A DNA stretch of 38,867 nucleotides, from positions 1 through 38,867 of IMG/VR virus record IMGVR_UViG_2526164634_000034, one strand, 5' to 3'. The notes under the pieces were generated by a model that searched no databases, had not been told where the DNA came from, and saw only the letters and a list, made by a program, of their open reading frames with translations. The first letter of the stretch is position 1; each line of letters opens with the position of its first letter. This DNA comes from a virus. Taxonomy: Duplodnaviria > Heunggongvirae > Uroviricota > Caudoviricetes. Of the stretch, positions 9,967-22,697 are shown in pieces. Position numbers and translations under genes: made by a program.

Positions 9967-11238
9967 TTACGGATTACCGAAGAACTGACCGCCCATGTGA
10001 GGGTTAAAGCACACATATGCAGGCAGTAAGTCGAAACGCATTTTTTGCACGTTGGCATCGCCATCTGCGTATTTATGTACGCGGATGGAGAAACCTTCAT
10101 ATGTTGCAACAGCAGAATCAATACTGTGCAGTTTCGGTAGTGGGATAGAGCCAAGTCCACAGAAGAACTTGTTATAGAACAGGTTTGGCTTCATTGTCTG
10201 GCTAGCAGTGCCTACCACAGATACGGCATCGCCTGCCGCTACCTGACGACTTACAGAGTTGTACTGCGGGTTTGTAGTGTCATAAATCGGAACACCAGAA
10301 AGCGTAACCGTCACATCGCCACTGCTGTCTGAATCAGCATCAGCAGTAACCGTTGCTGTGAAGCTAATTGGTGTGGCTCCGTTATACAACGCCTGTTTGG
10401 TCTGCTGTTGCAGCCAGTAGGTATTGGTGAATTTAACCTGATCACCAGCTTTCAGGAAACCTGTAACGCTGGTTGTCGCTCCGGTCAATGTTACAGTGAA
10501 CTGGTATGAGTCTTTAACTGCGTTATAGGTAACAGTTGGCTGTGTTTTGACTGTCAGTGTTCCGCCAAATGCCCCCTGCGTACGAGAGGCAAGCCCATTA
10601 GATATCAGTGCGCGAATGCCGCCAAAATTGGTTGGGATCTGTGCGTTCTCCCATGCAGTACGAACCAATTGATCTGAAGCATGCAAACCAGTCTGCGCAT
10701 CAGCAAGTCGCTGTGCAGACCATGGATCCATTACAGCATAGTTTTCACCTTCATTAACGCCGAGGTCTTTCAGGAAAGATGCCGTCTGCGCAACATCAGA
10801 CCATTTGGTGATTGGAGTATTGGGGCTACCAAGTGACAACGCACCGTTATTCATCATGAAGTGAGCAAGCTCTGTTTCAAGGTCGGTAACGATTCGCTGG
10901 CGAACCGGCGCGAGAATTTCTTCCAGTTGGTTAAGCTTGATCGCTTCCTCCAGTTGCTGATATTCAACAGCAACAGTGATGTAGTTACCTACACGCCCCG
11001 TAGCTTTACCTGAGATCAGGTTGTTTTTATTTTGCCCTGAAATATCACCAGTGGGAGTACGGAGGGATGAGAATTGATGCGGACGTTTAAAGCTAACGCT
11101 ATCGCCAGTGCTGGAGTTGATTTCACCTGCCAGCAACTGACGGTCTACGGTTTTCGCCAGAACTAAATCTGACATAAAACCCGGAAGGAATTTTTTCAGA
11201 ACGATTTGACTGACGTTACTGTCGAGATTGTTAGGCAT
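9967..11238 (-). CDS. Major capsid (coat) protein, Sf6 type
   Basis: 423 aa beginning MPNNLDSNVSQIVLKKFLPGF...; matches the recalled Sf6 coat protein in length and sequence and is unlike P22 coat. Confidence 0.85.
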   Translation of the reverse strand: MPNNLDSNVSQIVLKKFLPGFMSDLVLAKTVDRQLLAGEINSSTGDSVSFKRPHQFSSLRTPTGDISGQNKNNLISGKATGRVGNYITVAVEYQQLEEAIKLNQLEEILAPVRQRIVTDLETELAHFMMNNGALSLGSPNTPITKWSDVAQTASFLKDLGVNEGENYAVMDPWSAQRLADAQTGLHASDQLVRTAWENAQIPTNFGGIRALISNGLASRTQGAFGGTLTVKTQPTVTYNAVKDSYQFTVTLTGATTSVTGFLKAGDQVKFTNTYWLQQQTKQALYNGATPISFTATVTADADSDSSGDVTVTLSGVPIYDTTNPQYNSVSRQVAAGDAVSVVGTASQTMKPNLFYNKFFCGLGSIPLPKLHSIDSAVATYEGFSIRVHKYADGDANVQKMRFDLLPAYVCFNPHMGGQFFGNP

Positions 11239-11249
11239 TTATCTTTTCC

Positions 11250-12134
11250 TTATTCGATTTTTGCGCCGGGGCATAATTTGTTGAATTCGTCTTGTTTCGC
11301 ATCAGCACCGCCACCACGTACTTCCGGCTCTGGCTTGATGGCTTTCTTTGGTTTTGGAGCAAGGCTTACCTGTTTGCTAATCTGCCCCAAGAGGAATGCT
11401 GCGCGAATTGGATCTGTCTCAGCGGCTACACGCTGGCGTAATTGCTGGCTCTTACCTAAGCCATAGGCGAGTAGTTCAGAGCCTTCGTCTGCACAGTGAA
11501 TGATGATTTCCTGCTGAATTGGTGGTAGCTCACTAAGAACAATGGCCTCCATTTCCTGATAATCTTTCACAGGAAGTTTGGCTGCCCGTTGTTTATGCGC
11601 TTCTACCCTTTGCTGGAAACGCTGTTGGTATTCCTGTTGCTGACGTAGTTTTTGTTGCTGCTGCTGTTCGACACGGCCTTTTTTCTCATGCCAATCAGTC
11701 AATGCCTGTTCAAACGCCTGTTCGTCATAATCACACGACTCAAGAGTCGGTTTTGGTGGAATAGCGTCTGGTTGTGGTTGCTGATGTTCCGCTGGCTTGG
11801 CTAATGCTTCCTCAAGCTGGCGGCGCAACTCACGGTTTTCTTTCTGTGTTTCTTTGAAGCCTTTGCGAAGATCTTTCACCCATTGCGGTGCAGGTTGCCC
11901 GTCAATGTGATCATCATCGTCAGCGTTAAGCTGAATTTCTTCATCACCAATACGCAAGGCGTAATCTTCTGGTGTCTCTTCGGTTTTTTCAGGCTCAGTT
12001 GCCACCTCTTTACCGTTGTCATCCTGGCTTTCATTCTCAGGCTGTGACTCTGTTTGGATGATGGTTTCTTCTGCATTTTCCTGTGTTTCAGACAGGTCAA
12101 TAACCTGACCGTCGATGATCAGTTCGTTTTCCAT
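11250..12134 (-). CDS. Scaffolding protein
   Basis: 294-aa acidic, Gln/Glu-rich helical protein between the portal and coat genes. Confidence 0.75.
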   Translation of the reverse strand: MENELIIDGQVIDLSETQENAEETIIQTESQPENESQDDNGKEVATEPEKTEETPEDYALRIGDEEIQLNADDDDHIDGQPAPQWVKDLRKGFKETQKENRELRRQLEEALAKPAEHQQPQPDAIPPKPTLESCDYDEQAFEQALTDWHEKKGRVEQQQQQKLRQQQEYQQRFQQRVEAHKQRAAKLPVKDYQEMEAIVLSELPPIQQEIIIHCADEGSELLAYGLGKSQQLRQRVAAETDPIRAAFLLGQISKQVSLAPKPKKAIKPEPEVRGGGADAKQDEFNKLCPGAKIE

Positions 12135-12965
12135 TGATTACTCCTGGTTAACTCGGCATTAAGTCTGCCGGTGACTGTGGTGGTGACTGGAATTGCTGTT
12201 GTTGTGACTCGGCGACATCTTTCAGAAGGCGTATTGCCTCCATCACTGCTTTGTCATCGATGTTTCTGGCTTGAGCCAGTTTATAGACAGTGTTTGCCTG
12301 ACTCTCCATCGCATCCTGCTGGGCAGTAAATGCTTTGATTTGAGTTTGAGCAGTTTCGTTAGTTGCTTTTTGCGCTTCTGCCTGCGCTGCTACCATTTGC
12401 GCCTGAGCGAGAACCATTTCAGGATTTGGCTGGCTTTGTGCTGCCATTTGCGCCTGTTGAACAATCTGCTGCTCTTTCTCATTGCGTGGTTTTGCAATAC
12501 CAGATATCAGCAGTTGGTTTCGGTTGTACTCTTTGAAGTCATCAAGGCCTTCGCCATCGATATTGTCCAGAATAATACCCTGAATTGCCGGGCGCATTGG
12601 GTCTGTTGGAAGCATAGAGCTAAGGACATTTGTCAGTACAGAAACCGTTGCATCACGTCGTGCTGTGTAGCTTGGTCCAACATCAACCGTCACATCGTAT
12701 CGACCGACAGAAAGGTCATTTAACGCAACAACAGCCCCTGTTTGCCTGTCAACAACCTGTGCGCTCAGGACAGCGATATCATCACTTCCATCTTCGTTAA
12801 CGATGCGCACTTCACGTTCTGAACCGTACACTTCACGCGCCATTGACAGCCATACTTCACCAGCGCGTTTAAGACTTTTCGCCATATTATCCAGATAGAT
12901 AAACGAAGCCATATCTGCTCTGTTCATCAAGTTGTTAACCGTTTCCTGAGCAATATTACTTGGCA

Positions 12966-14294
12966 CTGAGAGATCCCCTCATAATTTCCCCAAAACGTAA
13001 CCATGTGTGAATAGATTTTGAGTAAGCAGGGTTGCAGCCACGAGTGAGTCTTCCCTTGTTATTGTGTAGCCAGAATGCCGCAAAACTTCCATGCCTAAGC
13101 GAACTGTTGAGAGTACGTTTCGATTTCTGACTGTGTTAGCCTGGAAGTGCTTGTCCCAACCTTGTTTCTGAGCATGAACGCCCGCAAGCCAACATGTTAG
13201 TTGAAGCATCAGGGCGATTAGCAGCATGATATCAAAACGCTCTGAGCTGCTCGTTCGGCTATGGCGTAGGCCTAGTCCGTAGGCAGGACTTTTCAAGTCT
13301 CGGAAGGTTTCTTCAATCTGCATTCGCTTCGAATAGATATTAACAAGTTGTTTGGGTGTTCGAATTTCAACAGGTAAGTTAGTTGCTAGAATCCATGGCT
13401 CCTTTGCCGACGCTGAGTAGATTTTAGGTGACGGGTGGTGACAATGAGTCCGTGTCGAGCGCTGATTTTTTCGGCCTTTAGAGCGAGATTTATACAATAG
13501 AATTTGGCATGAGATTGGATTGCTTTTAGTCAGCCTCTTATAGCCTAAAGTCTTTGAGTGACTAGATGACATATCATGTAAGTTGCTGATAGGTTTCCAG
13601 TTTTCCGCTCCTAGGTCTGCATATTGTACTTTTCCTCTTACTCGACTTAACCAGTACCAACCCAGCTTCTCAACGGATTTATACCATGGCACTTTAAAGC
13701 CAGCATCACTGACAATGAGCGGTGTGGTGTTACTCGGTAGAATGCTCGCAAGGTCGGCTAGAAATTGGTCATGAGCTTTCTTTGAACATTGCTCTGAAAG
13801 CGGGAACGCTTTCTCATAAAGAGTAACAGAACGACCGTGTAGTGCGACTGAAGCTCGCAATACCATAAGCCGTTTTTGCTCACGGATATCAGACCAGTCA
13901 ACAAGTACAATGGGCATCGTATTGCCCGAACAGATAAAGCTAGCATGCCAACGGTATACAGCGAGTCGCTCTTTGTGGAGGTGACGATTACCTAACAATC
14001 GGTCGATTCGTTTGATGTTATGTTTTGTTCTCGCTTTGGTTGGCAGGTTACGGCCAAGTTCGGTAAGAGTGAGAGTTTTACAGTCAAGTAAGGCGTGGCA
14101 AGCCAACGTTAAGCTGTTGAGTCGTTTTAAGTGTAATTCGGGGCAGAATTGGTAAAGAGAGTCGTGTAAAATATCGAGTTCGCACATTTTGTTGTCTGAT
14201 TATTGATTTTTGGCGAAACCATTTGATCATATGACAAGATGTGTATCTACCTTAACTTAATGATTTTGATAAAAATCATTAGGGGATTCATCAG
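12966..14294 (-). mobile_element. IS10 (1329 bp) with 9-bp target-site duplication TACTTGGCA
   Basis: Terminal sequences CTGAGAGATCCCCTCATAATTTCCCC (12966..) and ...AATCATTAGGGGATTCATCAG (..14294); identical 9-bp direct repeats at 12957..12965 and 14295..14303. Confidence 0.95.
12979..14187 (-). CDS. IS10 transposase
   Basis: 402 aa, MCELDILHDSLYQFCPELHLKRLNSLTLACHALLDCK..., matching the recalled IS10 (Tn10) transposase. Confidence 0.95.
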   Translation of the reverse strand: MCELDILHDSLYQFCPELHLKRLNSLTLACHALLDCKTLTLTELGRNLPTKARTKHNIKRIDRLLGNRHLHKERLAVYRWHASFICSGNTMPIVLVDWSDIREQKRLMVLRASVALHGRSVTLYEKAFPLSEQCSKKAHDQFLADLASILPSNTTPLIVSDAGFKVPWYKSVEKLGWYWLSRVRGKVQYADLGAENWKPISNLHDMSSSHSKTLGYKRLTKSNPISCQILLYKSRSKGRKNQRSTRTHCHHPSPKIYSASAKEPWILATNLPVEIRTPKQLVNIYSKRMQIEETFRDLKSPAYGLGLRHSRTSSSERFDIMLLIALMLQLTCWLAGVHAQKQGWDKHFQANTVRNRNVLSTVRLGMEVLRHSGYTITREDSLVAATLLTQNLFTHGYVLGKL

Positions 14295-15614
14295 TACTTG
14301 GCATCTGCTGCATGGCCTGACTGCCGCCTGTAACCTCCTGAATATCAGCACTGGTTTGCTGTAGTAATGCAGCCAATGCCTGATTCATAACCGCAGGCTG
14401 TGTATATCCTGCCGGGGTAGCTCCAGCGATAATGTTGCCAGATTTATCTCTCACTTCGCGCAACGGCAAGAACGCTGGGCGTTTCTTGTTGCGAGCCTCC
14501 CAGTGCTTCTCAAGTCCACGAATTTGCTCCATGCCAACTATAGGGATCTGACCGGGGTCTTGCGCTGCAGTATCAGCCAGCATTGAAACCTGAAGGTTGT
14601 ACAAACGCTGTGGATCCATTGCTTTTGCAATGTGCCCTTCGACACGCTCAATGTCATCAATGAACCAGCGTTTTCCATAAACCGGGATGAGGGGGATATG
14701 CTCACCAGGAATACGTCGAGGTTTCTCAAGGAAACCATCACCATCCACTACGGATACATACACACGACGGCGCTTCACTGAGCGCCTTGCCACTTCCTGA
14801 AATCCAGCTATTGCCAGTTCATCTTCAATATCTTCAACCTGATCACTGTCGTATGTTGCAATCTCTCCAGTGATTGGATGTCGATAACTGATGACGTCAA
14901 CAGACTCTTTACGAACTTCGTAATACTTCGCTATGTAAATAACATCTGCACCAAACCAGTTATATTCCCAACTGGTCATAGACGTTACATCCAGAGAAGT
15001 GGGAGGTTTCTTTCCGTATTCAGCCTCATATTTTTCAGGTGACAACGAATACATACAGAACGCCCACAACGCGTCAGATTTGTCGTACTTCTTAGCGTCA
15101 GGGTCAAACCACACAGAGCGCGACGGGTCGTATATTGGTTCAATAGCAATACGCTGACGATCGTCCATGGGGTCGTATTCATTGACCAGCATCGACGCCA
15201 AACGGAAGCAACCGAAACCACCAGTAGCAGCGTCGTCAAATGCATTATCGCAAGCCTCACCGCCATCAGTTTCTTCGTAGTCAGCACGGAACAGACCATT
15301 TAATTTATTGGCTAACTCTTCGCTTGCCTCTCTGTCACCAGGACGAAACTTAACGGTTATTCTGTTATTGCGGTATTCTGCAATGATGCGGTTAAGTTCA
15401 GTTGCTACCTTATTGATTTCAAACTTAGGATACTTCTCGAACTGCTCATCAAGCTTAGTTCCAGCCGCCGTTGCTCCTTCCCATTGACCTCCGGGGACAC
15501 GAGCAAACCTCGTAGCTTCAATGCACTTTTCGCGCACTTCCTTCTGTGGAGAATAGGCGCGGTCAAACCTGAGCATGATCCGCTCATGTTTTTTCTCTAA
15601 TGTCTCTGCCATGT

Positions 15615-17027
15615 TTACCAACCGGAGGATGAGGGAACGTATATTTCTGTTTCTTCGCGGACCAATGCCGGGAAATGCATACACATCATCAGCGCATCAG
15701 CCAGGTTAGGAGATGGAATACCGAGCTTCTGCTTCATTTCGACCTTAGTCATAAGCTCCAGCTTCCCGTTATTATTGAATTTGCGCTGAATCTGAGTCAG
15801 TTCTGCAAACAGCTTCTCCAGCATCTTCTCGCCTATCGCTTCTTTGTCGAAACTCAGCATGTCGTCGGGGTCTGCATACTCACCGTGAACAACCGCCCGA
15901 TATGTCAGATACAGCCTGTCAGCCAGCGCATAATAGAATTGCGCTCGCTTATTGCGGAATACATCGCCAATAGTGCGAACGTTGTCGCCCTGTACTACTT
16001 CATCAGCCCATGCTCCGGCCTGATACGGCGCATCTTCATCGAATGGCGATTCGCTGCCCTTGAACATCGTGGCGGTGATTTTCTTGCCGGAGAACGCTTC
16101 CGTTGTCTGTCTGCGTAGCCCGGCACCAACACCATCACCATCCCACAGGTAGTGGTCAGCGCCGTCTTCAATCGCCAGAGAAGTAGCCCAGTCAGCACCC
16201 TCGTTGATGTCCATCAGCAGACCTTCGGCAATGCGTTTAACTACCGAACCGTGGCGCGATGCGTAACCTTTAGCATCTGGCCCTGTATCTGACGGGTCAT
16301 GTGCAGAAACAACAGCGCCTTTCGCTTTCCATCCGAGTTTCTTGTGCGCATCGGTTGCGGCTTCAAGCCATTCACGTTTGATGATTGCCATATCACTTGC
16401 GCTTACCGGCTCACCAAGCCAGATGTGACGATACAGTGTCGGGTTTCTGCGTTTACACTCTTCCATCTCCAGACGGAGAACTTCAGGAAAGTGCGGGTTG
16501 TCGGTGTAGTTCACCGTCAGCAGACAAATATCATCAGGAGGGTTTACGACGAATCGCTGATAGGTATCGTCGAGGATGTTTTTCGGGTTAAAGCTCACCC
16601 ATATTTCGGAAAACGGCTTGCGGATTGTTGGGATCAGGATATCCCACGATTCCTTTGTTACCGCTTCCGCTTCTTCCACCCAGCAGATATCAATGCCTTC
16701 GAGCGATTTAATCTTCGTCGGGTTGTTTTTGATGCCGTAGAACATGAACTCAGCATTCGTTCCGAGATGACGAATCATGGAACGCTGAATTTCAAACTCA
16801 GCCGAATACCCTTCACGCTCGATGGTATCTTCAAGCAACCGGATTACCGAATCGCTGATACTGTTTTGCAGTTCACGAGCGCAGAGTATGCGCACAGGCT
16901 GCCGACGCGCCGCTTCAACAAGCAGCCTCGCAATTGCCCATGACTTACCGCTACCTCGACCGCCTTTGGCGACTTTGTAGCGATGCGCCTCAATGAACGG
17001 TTCAAAGATAGGATTAATCGAGGTCAT
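15615..17027 (-). CDS. Terminase large subunit
   Basis: 470 aa (Sf6 gp2 size) with Walker A-like KVAKGGRGSGKS near the N-terminus; stop overlaps the portal start. Confidence 0.9.
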   Translation of the reverse strand: MTSINPIFEPFIEAHRYKVAKGGRGSGKSWAIARLLVEAARRQPVRILCARELQNSISDSVIRLLEDTIEREGYSAEFEIQRSMIRHLGTNAEFMFYGIKNNPTKIKSLEGIDICWVEEAEAVTKESWDILIPTIRKPFSEIWVSFNPKNILDDTYQRFVVNPPDDICLLTVNYTDNPHFPEVLRLEMEECKRRNPTLYRHIWLGEPVSASDMAIIKREWLEAATDAHKKLGWKAKGAVVSAHDPSDTGPDAKGYASRHGSVVKRIAEGLLMDINEGADWATSLAIEDGADHYLWDGDGVGAGLRRQTTEAFSGKKITATMFKGSESPFDEDAPYQAGAWADEVVQGDNVRTIGDVFRNKRAQFYYALADRLYLTYRAVVHGEYADPDDMLSFDKEAIGEKMLEKLFAELTQIQRKFNNNGKLELMTKVEMKQKLGIPSPNLADALMMCMHFPALVREETEIYVPSSSGW

Positions 17028-17449
17028 TTTCCGAATAGAGTGCTCATCGGTGATGTTTCAATCTGAATTGCGCCGCCGTCCTTACCGACAAGCTCGTTAG
17101 TTACCTTGTCGCCATACTTACGGGGATTCATTCGGGCCAGCGCCCATTTGCGGGTATCAACGCGAAGTCTTGCCTTTGCCACCTCAGCAGCATCTGGAAT
17201 CGCAGTGTCAGCAATTTCGAATATCTCTTCGAAAATAGAATCAGCTCGCGCCTCAGTTGCCTTCGCGTACTTGTCTCTAAAGTCGTCATGCTCTGACAGC
17301 CAGCGAAATACAGTAGCCTTTGCTGGCATGCCGGGGCGCTTGCAAACCTTAACCAGACTTTCCCCGGAGGCAAGCAGCGCACAGATATCATCAGCCACCT
17401 CCGGCAGGTAATCCGAAGGGCGACCGACATTCTTTTTCTCAGTCGCCAT
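17024..17449 (-). CDS. Terminase small subunit (Sf6 gp1-like)
   Basis: 141 aa immediately upstream of and overlapping the large terminase. Confidence 0.8.
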   Translation of the reverse strand: MATEKKNVGRPSDYLPEVADDICALLASGESLVKVCKRPGMPAKATVFRWLSEHDDFRDKYAKATEARADSIFEEIFEIADTAIPDAAEVAKARLRVDTRKWALARMNPRKYGDKVTNELVGKDGGAIQIETSPMSTLFGK

Positions 17450-17528
17450 ATTGATTATTTCCCTTCTGCTTGCTTATCCCATTCATCGCGGAATTTGGAT
17501 GGGTTGTCGAAACCTTGAGTTGCCATGT

Positions 17529-17771
17529 TTATGCTCCGGTAGTGAACAGGTCTAACACTTCCTTCGATTTACGCACCGCTTCGATAGTGCGGGTCGTGAT
17601 ATCTGAATTAGCGCCACCTGACTGGAAGTGAATTTTAAATAGCTCAAGCTTCAGCTCGTCAGTGCCAATGAACTGAAATGCTTCTTCTGCGGCTGCGTTC
17701 TGGTTCATGACCAGTTTGTAAATCTCTAACTGGAATTTCTGTTCTTCAGTCATGGGAATAATCTCTGCCAT
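17529..17771 (-). CDS. Hypothetical 80-aa protein
   Basis: ORF with plausible spacing upstream of the packaging genes; no recognisable motif. Confidence 0.4.
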   Translation of the reverse strand: MAEIIPMTEEQKFQLEIYKLVMNQNAAAEEAFQFIGTDELKLELFKIHFQSGGANSDITTRTIEAVRKSKEVLDLFTTGA

Positions 17772-18027
17772 TGTTGGCTCCGTTTATCCGTTAAAAGGGA
17801 TATCAGTTAAGTTATCCCGTGCAGGGTATAAGCCATTGTCGAGACCACTCATTGAATGGCCTCTGCAATAACCGATGTCTTTCCATCAGTCCGCCACCAC
17901 AAAGAATCTTTTTTGCCATAAGGCTGGAGGTTCATCTTTCAGTGGCTGCCAGTGTTATTTCCCCACTTACTGGCTTGGGTTGTTTCGCTGTACTGCCGTA
18001 ATGCAAAAACTGGATTAACCTGCGAAA

Positions 18028-18558
18028 TCACACCATTCCGGGCAAATACATTTGCACTTCATTTGCCGCTCTCTCACGTGCAACATGAAGCAATCTTTTT
18101 CGCCCACCAACGCCCCACTTAGCCATTTGGCTTGCGCACTGGCTTATCGCTTTGGTTTCAGTATTGATGATGTGATCGATTCTATTCAGACGGGACATTG
18201 CGCCAACGCCGAGACGGACAACCGTTTTGAAAACTTCATAAACTTCGATTTCAAATTCCGGCTTAATCCATGCTGCATATCTGATTGCCAGAAGTTCAAC
18301 ACCCCACACACCTGGTTCTGCACCACCTTTGATTATTTTAAGTGGCTGAATTTGTTCCAAAGTGCTTTTTTGCACTTTGGCCTCCAGTGCTTTTATGAAG
18401 CGTTTTATCTGCGCGCTACGCAAAAACTGGCTTGGGCGCTGTTGCTCTGTAGCCTCTCCATTTGCAACTGCTGCTGCATGGAGATCGTTTAAGTTGTAGC
18501 GTCCATCCTCATCAACACGAACGGACACACCATTGACAATAACTGTTGGGTACTTCAT
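18028..18558 (-). CDS. KilA-N domain-like protein
   Basis: 176 aa; the N-terminal half has a KilA-N-like pattern (VIVNGVSVRVDEDGRYNLNDLH ... GVWGVELLAIRYAAWIKPEFEIEV). Confidence 0.5.
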   Translation of the reverse strand: MKYPTVIVNGVSVRVDEDGRYNLNDLHAAAVANGEATEQQRPSQFLRSAQIKRFIKALEAKVQKSTLEQIQPLKIIKGGAEPGVWGVELLAIRYAAWIKPEFEIEVYEVFKTVVRLGVGAMSRLNRIDHIINTETKAISQCASQMAKWGVGGRKRLLHVARERAANEVQMYLPGMV

Positions 18559-18705
18559 CAGTAATTACCTTTTAGTGATGAACCTTGTCACACAGGATTC
18601 CGGCCCACAGAAAGGTACCGATCACCAAACCGGCATCCTCAAGGGTCATCCTGAAAGGTTCTGTGTTCATAAGTCGCGCGTGTGAAGCGCGTTTACTGCG
18701 GACAT

Positions 18706-18728
18706 AAAAAAGCCCCGCATCGCGAGGC
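18706..18728 (-). terminator. Rho-independent terminator after the lysis cassette
   Basis: On the minus strand GCCUCGC-GAU-GCGGGGC (one G-U pair) followed by UUUUUUAU, about 35 nt downstream of the Rz stop. Confidence 0.5.
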
Positions 18729-18760
18729 TCATTAAATGGACTTTGTGATTTGCAAAAAAA

Positions 18761-19198
18761 TTATTTCAGGCACTGAGCCCTGATGTACTCCTGCAGGTAG
18801 TTAACCTGCGCGGTTATCCTGTCTATTCCACTTCGGAGACGGTAATAATTGAGTTCAGCATCTGCTGTAAGTCTTGGGCTTTCTCCATCGCCCATGCTGC
18901 TGGCTCCGGTCGTTGACTTTGCACAGGTGGCGGCGACTTGCAGGCGCTTACGACCAGCAGAAACATCAGCACGGAGACTTTCGATAGTCGCGTTAGCATC
19001 AGCAAGCTCCTTTGTGTATCTGGCGTCGAGTTCTGCTACATCACGTTGACGCTTCTGCATGTCAGCGATGATGGATGCGGCCTTATCGCGCTGTTCTTTG
19101 TAGGCGATGGCGTTATCACGGTAATGATTGACCGCCCACGACAGGCAGACGATGATGCAGATAACCAGAGCGGAGATAATCGCGGTTACTCTGCTCAT
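18761..19198 (-). CDS. Rz: Rz i-spanin
   Basis: 145 aa with N-terminal membrane anchor and coiled-coil periplasmic domain; follows the endolysin gene. Confidence 0.9.
18823..19005 (-). CDS. Rz1: Rz1 o-spanin lipoprotein, embedded in Rz in the +1 frame
   Basis: 60 aa with lipobox (LLVVSAC) and a proline-rich mature region; lambda-like embedded arrangement. Confidence 0.85.
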
Positions 19199-19671
19199 AC
19201 CTCAATCTCTCTGACCGTTCCGCCTGCTTCTTTGAATTTTGCAATCAGGCTGTCAGCCTTATGCTCGAACTGACCATAACCAGCACCCGGCAGTGAAGCC
19301 CAGATATTGCTGCAACGGTCAATTGCCTGACGAATATCACCGCGATCAATCATCGGTAAAGCGCCACGCTCTTTAATCTGCTGCAATGCCACAGCGTCCT
19401 GGCTTTTCGGAGAGAAATCTTTCAGGCCAAGCTGCTTACGATAGGCATCCCACCAACGGGAAAGAAGCTGATAACGTCCGGCAGCTGTTGATTTAAGTTT
19501 CGGGTTTAGCGTGACAAGTTTGCGAGGATGATCGGAGTAATCAGTGAATAGCTCTCCGCCAACAATGACGTCATAACCATGATTTCTGGTTTTCTGACGT
19601 CCATTATCAGTTCCCTCTGACCACGCCAGCATATCGAGGAACGCCTTACGTTGATTATTGATTTCCACCAT
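19195..19671 (-). CDS. R: Endolysin (lytic transglycosylase), lambda R
   Basis: 158 aa, [39 protein letters not shown]...; near-identical to recalled lambda R. Confidence 0.95.
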
Positions 19672-19978
19672 CTTCTACTCCGGCTTTTTTAGCAGCGAAG
19701 CGTTTGATAAGCGAACCAATCGAGTCAGTACCGATGTAGCCGATGAACACGCTCGTTATATAAGCGAGATTGCTACTTAGTCCGGCGAAGTCGAGAAGGT
19801 CACGAATGAACCAGGCGATAATGGCGCACATCGTTGCGTCGATTACTGTTTTTGTAAACGCACCGCCATTATACCTGCCGCGAAGGTACGCCATTGCAAA
19901 CGCAAGGATTGCCCCGATGCCTTGTTCCTTTGCCGCGAGAATGGCGGCTAACAGGTCATGTTTTTCTGGCATCTTCAT
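19655..19978 (-). CDS. S: Holin, lambda S (S107/S105 dual start)
   Basis: 107 aa, [39 protein letters not shown]...; matches recalled lambda S including the MKM dual-start motif. Confidence 0.95.
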
Positions 19979-20530
19979 GTCTTACCCCCAGAAGGGGATC
20001 TGTTCAAATTAGGAATTATGGATATGGTCGCTTGAACAAATCCGGGTTACGGTTGATTTGTAACGGGTTTGTTCGTGACCGCATTCATGAGCAAATCTGG
20101 CGTGGATTGCGCCAACAATACATGCCGCTCATATCACGAAGCCCAGCCATTGATGCTGGGTTTTCTTTTTTAAAGCGCACTAGACAACCGTATCCACAGA
20201 GTGTCAGCAATGAGTTGGTTAGGTCTAGTTCTTGGTGGAAGTACGCTTTAAAAAATGGGCTGAGGGTTGTAGCCCAAAATACTTAGGGAATGGTAAGGAT
20301 GAACAACGGTTTTGCTCTGGGTGGATTTGGCTGTGGTGGCCGGCGCTGATCTCCGGCTTGTATACAGGCACCTTGTTCTTCCGAAGCTCTCCTGCGCGCA
20401 TCAGCCTGCGCATTCACCACACCGGAAAGAGCACTCAGTTGTACCGGCCAGTTGTGCCACTAAGAAATGCTTTCGCAGACCGTTAAGCTCTTTGCCAGTT
20501 CTTTAATGCTCTTACCTGTTGTGCAGATAT

Positions 20531-20590
20531 AAAAAATCCCGAAACCGTTGTGCAGGCTCTAACTATTACCTGCGAACTGTTTCGGGATTG
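20531..20590 (-). terminator. tR' terminator
   Basis: Minus-strand hairpin CCCGAAACAG...GGTTTCGGG followed by TTTTTTAT. Confidence 0.8.
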
Positions 20591-20722
20591 CATTTTGCAG
20601 ACCTCTCAGCCTGCGATGGTTGGAGTTCCAGACGATACGTCGAAGTGACCAACTAGGCGGAATCGGTAGTAAGCGCCGCCTCTTTTCATCTCACTACCAC
20701 AACGAGCGAATTAACCCATTGT
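20531..20722 (-). ncRNA. Lambda-type 6S RNA (pR' to tR' leader transcript)
   Basis: The sequence between the pR' -10 and the tR' hairpin matches the recalled lambda 6S region; about 192 nt. Confidence 0.65.
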
Positions 20723-20760
20723 TGGGTCAAATTTACCCAACTTTATTCAAAAAGTCAATA
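20722..20760 (-). promoter_or_regulatory. Late promoter pR' with overlapping qut site
   Basis: Minus strand: -35 TTGACT (20753..20758), 17-bp spacer, -10 TAAATT (20730..20735); matches recalled lambda pR'. Confidence 0.8.
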
Positions 20761-20800
20761 TCATGCCGTTAATATGTTGCCATCCGTGGCAATTATGCTG

Positions 20801-21424
20801 CTAACGTGTGACTGCATTCAAAATGTTGTCTGCGATTGACTCTTCCTTGTGGCATTGCACCACCAGAGCGTCATACAGCGGCTTAACAGTGCGTGACCAG
20901 GTGGGTTGGGTAAGGTTTGGGATTAGCATCGTTACAGCGCGATATGCGGCGCTTGCTGGCATCCTTGAATAGCCGACGCCTTTGCATCTTCCGCATTCTT
21001 TCTCAACAACTCTCCCCCACAGCTCTGTTTTTGATATATCAACCGCACGGCCTGTACCGTGGCAATCTCTACATCTTGCGCCCGGCGTCGCGGCACTACG
21101 GCAATAATCCGCATAAGCGAATGTTGCGAGCACTTGCAGTACCTTTGCCTTAGTATTTCCTTCAAGCTTTGCAATGCCACGGTATTTCCCCGATACCTTG
21201 TGTGCAAATTGCATCAGATAGTTGATAGCCTTTTGTTTGTCGTTCTGGCTGAGTTCATGCTTACCGCAGAATGCAGCCATTCCGAATCCAGCTTGTGATT
21301 GCGCCATCCCCATAGCAGCCATCACATCAGTACCTGAAAGAGAGTCAGAAGCCGTAGCCCGTGGTGAGTCGCTCATCATCGGGCTTTTTGGCGAATGAAA
21401 TTTAGCTACGCTTTCGAGTCTCAC
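20801..21424 (-). CDS. Q: Late antiterminator Q
   Basis: 207 aa, [31 protein letters not shown]...; near-identical to recalled lambda Q. Confidence 0.95.
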
Positions 21425-22086
21425 GCGCCTTCTCCCTGTACCTGAATCAATGTGAGGTTTCCGCAGAACACTGCGCCAGTATCGATATACATCTGGTTGG
21501 CAAATTTGAGTGGTTTCACTGCTGGCGTATGACCAAAGATGAACGTGTCCGCGCCTTTGATTTCTTTCACGATCCCGTCTTGTGAGTTGCTGATTCGTTC
21601 GCGGTTCCAGATTACCTGCTGATGATCAACTGGCTTTCCAAACTCGTATTTATCACAAGGATAATCGGCGTGGCAAATGACATATTTTTTATCTTTGCTC
21701 ACCAGTTCGATGATTAACGGAAGTTCTTCTGCTTTATGGGCAAGAACTTTAGCCAGAGTCTCTTTGTCGTAATCGAGATTAAAGAACCAGCCACCGCCAT
21801 TAAGCAGCCAGTGATTAACGTTTCCACGCTCTGATAAGCCATCAATCATCATTTGCTCATGGTTTCCACGCACAGCTCTGAACCAGGGGAATGTGATTAA
21901 TTCCAGACATTCGACGTTCTCTGTACCGCGATCAACCAAATCGCCAACCGAGATGAGCAGGTCTTTTTTGGTGTCGAATCCAATCGTATCCAGTTTGTTC
22001 ATCAGGTTCGTGTAGCATCCGTGCAGGTCGCCAGCTACCCAAATATTTCGGTATTTGCTGCCATCAATTCTTTCGTAGATATTCAT
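21421..22086 (-). CDS. Ser/Thr protein phosphatase (lambda orf221, NinI)
   Basis: 221 aa with metallophosphatase motifs GDLHG, GDLVDRG, GNHE. Confidence 0.9.
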
Positions 22087-22697
22087 GCAGCCTCACTTCT
22101 GCTGTTTCGCAGGTCTTTGAGTTTCTGTTGGTACTCTGCCTTGATCGCCTTGCACTCTTCGACAGTCCAGCGATGGCGGTTATGGTTTGATTCGATTTCG
22201 TCTACTGCTTCCTGCCTGATGCGGCTAATCAGTTCGACGCGATACGGAACGAGATTTCCGCTTTTGTGCTGGTTGCACACCACGCATTGCTTGTGAATAT
22301 TGCGTTCATCAAATCGGAGTTGAGGTGCCGCAGCAGTTGTCCGGTAATGTCCGGCATCCCACTGAGCAGACGTGAGCGTTCCGCACGAGATACATGGTAA
22401 GTCGCGGTCTCTTTCTCTGATGAAGGCGTTTACGGCTTGTTGGGCTTGTTTAATCCAGTAACTGCGGGGCTTTAAGGCGAGTTTTCGAATCTTAAGTTTA
22501 TCTTTCTGTTTCTGCTCCTCTCGTCGTCGTTTCTTCTCTGCTGCTTTTTCCGCTTTTTCGCGTTCTTTACTTCGTCGTTCGAGTGCTATCTTGGTTCCAC
22601 ACTCTGGAGAGCACCACCACTGATTAGCGAATGCAGGGTGAAACCATTCCCGACATTCATCGTTTTTACATCGTCTTCGCGCTGGTTTAGCCATCAT
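22083..22697 (-). CDS. ninG: NinG (Rap) recombination-associated protein
   Basis: 204 aa, Cys-rich N-terminus; matches recalled lambda NinG. Confidence 0.85.

Follow-up and report, generated by a model that had tools for sequence, protein, structure and literature searches.

In the lambda system, Q-modified RNA polymerase reads through terminators such as tR'. Here we describe a related late-gene switch and lysis cassette in a 38,867-nucleotide sequence from a tailed phage (Caudoviricetes), IMG/VR record IMGVR_UViG_2526164634_000034, positions 1 to 38,867; this whole stretch is referred to below as the window. Its minus strand carries, between positions 21424 and 18761, the late antiterminator gene Q, the late promoter pR' with qut, a 6S/tR' leader, a noncoding spacer and the lysis genes S, R, Rz and Rz1. 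Parts of this arrangement are well known outside lambda itself: the Q proteins of P22, epsilon34 and Para1 are 98-99% identical to lambda Q, epsilon34 carries an identical qut, and lysis cassettes behave as interchangeable modules (PMC2629481). We are confident that the region comes from a P22-like temperate phage or prophage (Lederbergvirus), in which it forms the late-gene switch together with the lysis cassette, and that it was built by repeated lambdoid recombination.

The closest known phages each share some of these segments and differ in others. HK620 (NC_002730), a P22-like podovirus, places a lambda-type Q (97.6% amino acid identity), pR'/qut, S (99.1%) and R (100%) ahead of P22-like genes 3, 2 and 1, as the window does; its tR'-to-S spacer is 99.3% identical, including an RNA element and the terminator 'tQ', and a DUF2560 gene (hkbM) likewise precedes its small terminase gene. 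However, the lambda 6S/tR' leader of the window is replaced in HK620 by a 377-bp sequence of its own; HK620 also has a different Rz allele (54.5% amino acid identity) and a different KilA-N gene, and carries rus and ninH upstream of Q where the window carries ninG and ninI. Sf6 (NC_005344) shares the virion module (96.4%), S (100%), R (98.1%), Rz (97.2%), an Rz1 of the same type, an Sf6_terminase small subunit, and matching ninG, ninI and DUF2560 genes; it differs in its phage-21-type Q, promoter and terminator, in having tRNA-Asn and tRNA-Thr genes between Q and S, in lacking KilA-N and possessing ninH, and in carrying IS911 in ninG, whereas the window carries IS10 in its portal gene. Lambda (NC_001416, 42.1-46.1 kb) has ninE-G, ninI, Q, pR', qut, 6S, tR', S, R and Rz codons 1-30 in common with the window, but its tR'-to-S spacer, the C-terminal part of Rz, and Rz1 are different; it also has ninH, bor follows Rz, and its virion genes are unrelated. 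The same Q-pR'-S-R-Rz cassette is found at 94-97% DNA identity in HK446 and HK633 (HK97-like) and in IME10 (P22-like). HK446 and IME10 share the Rz/Rz1 allele and post-Rz terminator of the window, and HK633 shares the HK620-type spacer; HK446 and HK633 nevertheless have siphovirus HK97-type head and tail genes, and neither they nor IME10 contain the window's combination of segments.

Sequences were compared with lambda 40000-48502 and the matching regions of IME10, HK620, Sf6 and HK446, using a 100-bp identity plot drawn from blastn alignments together with global DNA alignments and protein comparisons for each feature. The components of the switch and cassette are as follows.

20801-21424, minus strand: Q late antiterminator (207 amino acids), lambda specificity type; 98.6% amino acid and 96.6% DNA identity to lambda.
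20718-20758, minus strand: pR' with Q-binding region and pause element, from a promoter scan and base-level alignment to lambda, IME10, HK446 and HK620.
20531-20723, minus strand: 6S-type leader and tR' intrinsic terminator; 3 mismatches in 193 nt relative to lambda.
19985-20504, minus strand: tR'-to-S spacer of HK620/HK633 type, replacing the lambda spacer, from alignments to HK620, HK633 and lambda.
20250-20275, minus strand: terminator-like hairpin and T-run (GGGCU...AGCCCAUUUUUU), equivalent to the late terminator annotated as 'tQ' in HK620 and mapped through a 99% alignment.
19655-19978, minus strand: S holin/antiholin; 99.1% amino acid identity to lambda, 100% to Sf6, 98.8% DNA identity to lambda; Pfam Phage_holin_3_1 (PF05106).
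19195-19671, minus strand: R endolysin, lambda-type transglycosylase (158 amino acids); 98.7% amino acid and 95.0% DNA identity to lambda, 100% amino acid identity to HK620 R.
18761-19198, minus strand: Rz i-spanin (145 amino acids), a chimera; Pfam Phage_lysis, 124 bits.
18823-18999, minus strand: Rz1 o-spanin lipoprotein (58 amino acids) with lipobox VSAC, lying wholly inside Rz in the +1 frame; Pfam Rz1, 72.7 bits.

Q, S, R, Rz and Rz1 are all encoded on the minus strand within the block named in the original prediction, which was made by a reader of the sequence without database searches. Q matches Pfam Antiterm (PF03589) at 192.6 bits, against a cut-off of 26.7, and is separated from S by 822 nt of noncoding DNA. 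S keeps the dual-start Met-Lys-Met motif of a class I holin, with the S107 start at 19978 and the S105 start at 19972. Because R returned no Pfam match at E ≤ 0.001, its assignment rests on its identity to lambda R; its translation includes Glu19, the catalytic residue. Rz1 begins 199 nt into Rz, which places it in the +1 frame and gives the two-component embedded spanin architecture; its mature part is proline-rich.

The transcriptional switch is similarly close to that of lambda. From the pR' -35 hexamer through the tR' T-run, DNA identity to lambda is 97.4% (222/228). The -35 (TTGACT, 20758-20753) and -10 (TAAATT, 20735-20730) hexamers are both identical to those of lambda, and alignment places the start of transcription at 20723, which corresponds to lambda 44587. 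Relative to lambda, the promoter and qut carry four substitutions, three of them common to the viable phages HK620 and HK446; two substitutions fall in the -35/-10 spacer, and both are also present in HK620 and HK446. The -10-like hexamer at 20723-20718, presumably a sigma70-dependent pause element as in lambda, reads AACAAT in place of the lambda AACGAT, a G to A change that keeps the A2 and T6 positions and brings it closer to the -10 consensus. The altered hexamer is rare: it is absent from all 11 further pR' copies of lambda type among the loci compared, and a single IMG/VR contig, 97% identical to the window over Q-tR', has it. In the leader, the tR' hairpin (about 20588-20537) and its T6 run (20536-20531) are conserved, and the lambda 6S RNA has a comparable length of about 194 nt. 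At the level of sequence, the type of Q, the pR' promoter with its pause hexamer, and the leader with tR' all place the region among lambda-type Q modules.

From this near-identity to lambda we infer how the switch would work. Q would bind its site in pR' and load onto RNA polymerase paused at the -10-like hexamer just past the start site; the modified polymerase would then be able to pass both tR' and the following HK620-type hairpin ('tQ', 20275-20250), and would transcribe S, R, Rz/Rz1 and the accessory genes before continuing into the terminase and virion genes.

Though lambda is a good match for much of this region, the best match in the identity plot alternates among the six references, with at least seven breakpoints within 21424-17449. 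The segment 23039-20505, comprising ninE-ninG, ninI, Q, pR', qut, the 6S leader and tR', is 95-99% identical to lambda DNA. The match to lambda, IME10 and HK446 breaks off at 20505/20504, some 27 nt past the tR' T-run, and the switch from lambda to HK620 falls within a 19-nt stretch (CACAACAGGTAAGAGCATT, 20523-20505) common to both phages. Over the 409 bp that follow (20504-20096), identity is 99.3% to HK620 and HK633 and 42.8% to lambda, a value that reflects no homology; the remaining stretch of about 115 bp, up to just before S (20095-19979), is 73% identical to lambda and 99% identical to HK620. S, R and the first 30 codons of Rz are the version common to lambda, HK620, Sf6, IME10 and HK446, with Rz codons 1-30 being 95.6% identical to lambda DNA and common to all six phages compared. 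A further breakpoint lies within Rz at about 19107, where lambda and HK620 carry one allele and the window, Sf6, IME10 and HK446 carry another, with a 21-nt difference in length; the Sf6 record annotates a 'bsq7 boundary sequence' at the equivalent position. Past codon 30, Rz and its lambda counterpart agree at 59.9% of DNA positions; taken as a whole, the protein shares 57.8% of its residues with lambda and 97.2% with Sf6. Rz1 is 37% identical to lambda Rz1 and about 95% identical to that of Sf6 over the shared part, so that both spanin genes belong to the Sf6/IME10/HK446 allele and not to that of lambda.

These alignments qualify the original reading of everything from Q to Rz1 as essentially identical to lambda. 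That description holds for Q, pR'/qut, 6S/tR', S and R, at 95-99% DNA identity, but not for the tR'-to-S spacer, most of Rz, or any of Rz1; even in the lambda-like parts, a divergence of 1-5% makes "essentially identical" an overstatement. The check proposed with it, an identity plot against lambda and Sf6, returned high lambda identity in most parts, interrupted at 20504 to about 19985 and ending at about 19107.

Mosaicism extends beyond the cassette on both sides, where the following features are found.

22083-22697, minus strand: ninG (204 amino acids), lambda-type; 98.5% amino acid and 99.0% DNA identity to lambda NinG.
21421-22086, minus strand: ninI Ser/Thr phosphatase (221 amino acids), lambda/Sf6-type; 94.6% amino acid and 95.4% DNA identity to lambda; Pfam Metallophos.
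18700-18730, minus strand: intrinsic-terminator-like hairpin and T-run just after Rz, common to IME10 and HK446.
18028-18558, minus strand: KilA-N accessory gene (176 amino acids), Salmonella P22-like type; Pfam KilA-N.
17529-17771, minus strand: DUF2560 gene (80 amino acids, hkbM-like); Pfam DUF2560, 147 bits.
17024-17449, minus strand: small terminase of Sf6 type, the start of the virion module; Pfam Sf6_terminase.
15615-17027, minus strand: large terminase; Pfam Terminase_3, 93-100% identical to Sf6 and HK620.

Upstream, the ninI/Q boundary is itself a breakpoint: Sf6 homology ends at 21422 and HK620 homology begins at 21423. Sf6 stops matching at the start of Q because its own Q is of the phage-21 type (15% amino acid identity to the window Q), and the lambda record has a misc_recomb feature at this boundary. 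ninH is cleanly absent from the window, in which the ninG stop overlaps the ninI start (ATGA, 22086-22083); the alignment gap falls exactly at ninH in every reference, and lambda, Sf6, IME10 and HK446 all carry the gene (184 bp). Downstream, the Sf6 match stops at the Rz stop codon (about 18770), and the matches to IME10 and HK446 extend past the terminator and end at 18707 and 18648, respectively. The segment 18728-17520 then matches Salmonella P22-like phages, with UPF_BP1 at 92%; its KilA-N part is about 95% identical in DNA in SE1, ST104 and PS119, and the KilA-N gene has no match in lambda, IME10, HK620, Sf6 or HK446. Within the same segment, the DUF2560 region (18001-17531) is 93-100% identical in DNA to HK620, Sf6, IME10 and HK446. 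The first 150 nt or so of the small terminase gene are 76-78% identical to Sf6 and HK620, and the remainder is 91-100% identical. Sf6 matches window positions 1-19500 at 96.4% over 71% of their length, which together with the Sf6_terminase domain places the virion module in the Sf6 subgroup of the P22-like phages (Lederbergvirus), in line with the Sf6/P22-like character originally proposed. Two short open reading frames also occur on the minus strand of this accessory region: a 32-amino-acid hydrophobic frame at 18670-18572 (MNTEPFRMTLEDAGLVIGTFLWAGILCDKVHH), ahead of KilA-N, and a 23-amino-acid frame at 17527-17456 (MATQGFDNPSKFRDEWDKQAEGK), in the slot occupied by hkbN in HK620 and Sf6.

The region is therefore a patchwork in which the nin-Q-pR'-tR' segment is of lambda type, the spacer of HK620 type, the rest of Rz and all of Rz1 of Sf6 type, and KilA-N of Salmonella P22-like type. 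The breakpoints lie at gene ends or in short sequences common to the parental types, as is typical of lambdoid exchange.

Several considerations weigh against reading the region as a working switch and lysis cassette of recombinational origin. The G to A change in the pause hexamer is rare; the functions of Q, pR' and the lysis genes are assigned from sequence alone; the portal gene is split by IS10, and this copy may be a decaying prophage; the order of the recombination events cannot be reconstructed; and no record among the searched phages and Escherichia coli genomes carries this exact combination of segments, an absence that is nonetheless expected for lambdoid mosaics. The insertion in the portal gene is the following.

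12966-14294: IS10 (1329 bp), with target duplications at 12957-12965 and 14295-14303.

Identical 9-mers (TACTTGGCA) 1338 bp apart form the 9-bp target duplication, and the element has ends CTGAGAGATCCCCTCATAATTT and CTGATGAATCCCCTAATGATTTT, a 402-amino-acid transposase open reading frame (12979-14187), and an RNA-OUT match (14180-14249, 97.3 bits). Removal of IS10 in silico restores a portal protein of 708 amino acids. The perfect ends and target duplication, together with the restorable portal, make the insertion look recent. Since the portal is split, this copy probably cannot produce virions, although it can probably lyse its host.

An inert remnant of a defective prophage, with neither a working switch nor working lysis genes, would fit the interrupted portal, the missing ninH and the rare change in the pause hexamer. 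We consider this improbable, given that none of Q, S (with its dual start), R (with Glu19), Rz and Rz1 (with its lipobox) is truncated and each has 97-100% identity to a protein of a viable phage, that the promoter hexamers and the terminator are intact, and that excision of the apparently recent IS10 insertion would restore the portal.

The original prediction envisaged an intact lambda block from Q to Rz/Rz1, joined once to an Sf6-type virion module at a sharp junction at 17.5-18.7 kb. It is true that lambda matches well over 22200-19086 and that Sf6 has other accessory genes than those found here at 18.6-17.5 kb. However, similarity to lambda is already broken in the spacer and over by the Rz breakpoint, Rz1 is far from its lambda counterpart, and the stretch from 21.4 to 17.4 kb contains not one junction but the at least seven breakpoints described above. 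Nor are the lysis genes newly joined to Sf6-type virion genes: Sf6 itself already links S-R-Rz-Rz1 (94.6% DNA identity over 20095-18768) and the DUF2560 region to the same virion module. The proposed junction region, with its accessory genes, is itself composite, combining a Salmonella P22-like KilA-N segment with a DUF2560 segment common to HK620, Sf6, IME10 and HK446. We regard this single-junction model as very unlikely and, on these alignments, refuted. The general idea that a lambda-type Q/pR'/tR', S and R stand ahead of a P22/Sf6-type virion module survives, so the original observation is borne out in part and its interpretation retains partial support.

An assembly or binning chimera of reads from co-resident lambdoid prophages is just as hard to credit: E. 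coli and Shigella genomes often hold several near-identical Q-S-R cassettes (median 2 and maximum 15 matching places per genome), repeats that invite mis-joins, but each junction here lies at a gene boundary or in a short sequence common to the two parental types, no reading frame is broken, not even that of the chimeric Rz or of the Rz1 within it, the junction types recur in independently sequenced phages (HK620 and HK633 for the spacer; Sf6, IME10 and HK446 for Rz), and IS10 has a clean 9-bp target duplication.

Repeated lambdoid recombination thus remains our account of the region, and as a mosaic it is of a known kind. The one item in it that may be new is a structured RNA within the HK620-type spacer.

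20332-20436, minus strand: tRNA-shaped structured RNA element, with a leader at 20436-20422 and a 90-nt core at 20421-20332; from folding and covariation.

The window has one copy, which, read in the sense of the late operon, folds as a cloverleaf closed by a 7-bp stem (UGUGGUG/CACCACA). It contains the hairpin GCGCA-GGCUGA-UGCGC and a 3' hairpin, GCCGG-AGAUCAGCG-CCGGC, that abuts the 3' strand of the closing stem; a variable arm occupies the position of the tRNA anticodon arm. Across the family, a core of about 50 nt is near-invariant, its conservation reaching nucleotide level across phages of Gamma-, Beta- and Alphaproteobacteria, with the consensus GCCGG-AGAUCAGCR-CCGGC for the 3' hairpin. 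The loops of the two hairpins are mutually complementary (GCUGA/UCAGC), but these positions never change on both sides at once, so covariation speaks neither for nor against their pairing. In some variants leader and trailer could pair and lengthen the closing stem, though not consistently.

The element is widely distributed, with copies in hundreds of proteobacterial phages and prophages. A 104-bp piece (20435-20332) is present at 99% identity in the unrelated coliphage swi2 and in the Klebsiella phages ZCKP8 and SopranoGao, and a more sensitive search recovered 164 phage records in which the ends are conserved and the middle is variable. Two exact-pattern scans of IMG/VR, pooled, gave at least 137 distinct variants; among the matches listed, the middle ranges from 6 to 178 nt (median 73), and the smallest, at 56 nt, amounts to a bare three-way junction. 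In one scan of species-representative genomes, the exact 22-nt core matched 111 DNA stretches, carried by Enterobacterales, Aeromonas, Pseudomonas, many Betaproteobacteria, some Alphaproteobacteria, and a few metagenome-assembled genomes (MAGs) of other phyla. Of 5426 complete E. coli genomes, 852 contain an mEp460-type variant; in the 12 E. coli records listed, nothing is annotated beneath the match. Carriers also include HK620, P1-like plasmids and T1-like Klebsiella phages.

Covariation supports all three stems of the fold. In the viral set, five pairs in the two hairpin stems change on both sides (16 cells), none of 500 shuffles scores as high for covariation as the real alignment, and pairing holds in 98.1% of cells, against 25-53% with slid partners. 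The genome set adds covariation in the closing stem, at its two outer pairs, which were left free in the search pattern: the first is GC in 29 cases, AU in 7, UA in 5 and CG in 2, and the second UA in 33, GC in 5, CG in 3 and AU in 2. One-sided changes are almost all to G-U, which indicates that this strand is the one read as RNA. The covariation was measured on halves of the element found by similarity to a consensus and aligned after removal of the middle.

No constant neighbouring gene accompanies the copies of the element, though certain sites recur: downstream of a cI-like repressor, between a Q gene (of three Q types) and the lysis genes, and beside tRNA genes. Only about 10% of copies have a tRNA gene no more than 400 nt away, but 45 of 47 such tRNAs are co-oriented with the element; in a P1-like plasmid it directly follows tRNA-Asn and tRNA-Thr, and in swi2 and ZCKP8 it stands directly before tRNAs. 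In lambda's own tR'-to-S spacer, positions 44844-44904 hold only a decayed relic of the element: the 16-nt leader CAGTGCTCTTTCCGTT is identical, GTGCTGAAT replaces GTGGTGAAT, no first hairpin is left, and the second survives in degraded form (ACCGGAAGCAGAACCGGATCACCA). In some variants (L114 and L243, from IMG/VR and Geobacteraceae MAG loci), the variable arm contains an apparent tRNA D-arm and T-arm (GCTCAATCGGTAGAGC ... CTGGTTCGATTCCAG), which would be a tRNA-like unit nested inside the scaffold.

Other structures share the spacer. On the plus strand, 20138-20174 forms a strong terminator-like hairpin (GAAGCCCAGCCATTGATGCTGGGTTTT then CTTTTTT), in antisense orientation relative to the late operon; its Rfam match, isrJ-like, is weak (17.8 bits, E = 1.5), and it has no obvious gene upstream on the plus strand. 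The 82 nt between the element and 'tQ' (20331-20250) end in a hairpin and U-run, and could form a separate terminator-ended small RNA freed by processing, resembling the Pas small RNAs of enteropathogenic E. coli prophages as described. The Pas RNAs occupy a similar slot near lysis genes; by description they are Hfq-type and terminator-ended, unlike the tRNA-shaped element.

Attempts to assign the element to a described RNA were unsuccessful. Rfam 15, searched with the window, with the spacer at E ≤ 10, and with 10 other loci, returned no family for it at the gathering threshold or at E ≤ 10 apart from an 18-nt piece that resembles the rydB hairpin (17.7 bits against a cut-off of 50). In the small RNA RydB of E. 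coli K-12 (L334, 1714-1781), the hairpin GCCGGAGAUAAGCGCCGG agrees with the 3' hairpin of the element at 17 of 18 nt, and nothing else matches; the RydB hairpin likewise precedes the 3' strand of a closing stem. The resemblance may reflect distant or degenerate kinship, or it may be fortuitous. RefSeq contains no annotation of the element, and its core sequence was not found in the searched literature; papers beyond that set may describe it under another name.

The obvious structural comparison is with tRNA, which has a similar cloverleaf layout with a closing stem of 7 bp; of the element's two hairpins, one has the size of a D-arm (4-5 bp stem, 6-8 nt loop) and the other resembles a T-arm. 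However, the element has a 6-178 nt insert in place of a fixed anticodon arm with a 5-bp stem and 7-nt loop, and its 3' hairpin has a 9-nt loop that does not have the T-loop sequence. ARAGORN finds no tRNA in the window, though Sf6 and phage 21 have tRNA genes in the equivalent spacer, and the Rfam tRNA model does not match the element in the window or in 10 other loci, though it recovers true neighbouring tRNAs. It is accordingly not a canonical tRNA. The T4 RNAs rnaC and rnaD are, like the element, small non-tRNA RNAs able to sit in phage tRNA clusters, and show no sequence similarity to it by eye. The HK022 put antiterminator RNA is set apart by its description (two stems, no closing stem) and is not supported as a model for the element. 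A retron noncoding RNA would not fit the absence of a reverse transcriptase or other conserved neighbour gene, and a DNA-level inverted repeat or miniature inverted-repeat transposable element would not fit stems that tolerate G-U but not A-C on this strand, or the differing spacing of the two arms.

We tentatively suggest that the element belongs to a widespread and apparently undescribed family of phage structured RNAs, in which a tRNA-shaped scaffold carries an active variable arm. As a working guess, the scaffold might be cut from long phage transcripts or tRNA operons by host tRNA-processing enzymes, the phage-specific arm might act as a decoy, guide or sponge, and the near-invariant core might serve as a handle for a conserved host partner. 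If truly undescribed, it would constitute a new and abundant class of phage RNA, spanning phages of Gamma-, Beta- and Alphaproteobacteria, for which HK620, P1-like plasmids and T1-like Klebsiella phages would offer tractable systems.

The mosaic that surrounds the element is more familiar. No phage record covers at least 80% of the region; the best coverage by a single record is 73% at 96.1% identity among phages (IME10) and 90% at 97.6% for an E. coli chromosome. The 4.1-kb module is matched in 5129 of 5426 complete E. coli genomes, of which 84 cover at least 80% of it. Because every segment and every type of junction exists in published phages, the arrangement is one already known. It also illustrates that "lambda-like" labels assigned from recall can mask allele switches within a gene, as in Rz, and the replacement of noncoding spacers. 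In its construction, the region is one more case of the modular lambdoid exchange described for HK97 and HK022, HK620, Sf6, and epsilon34.

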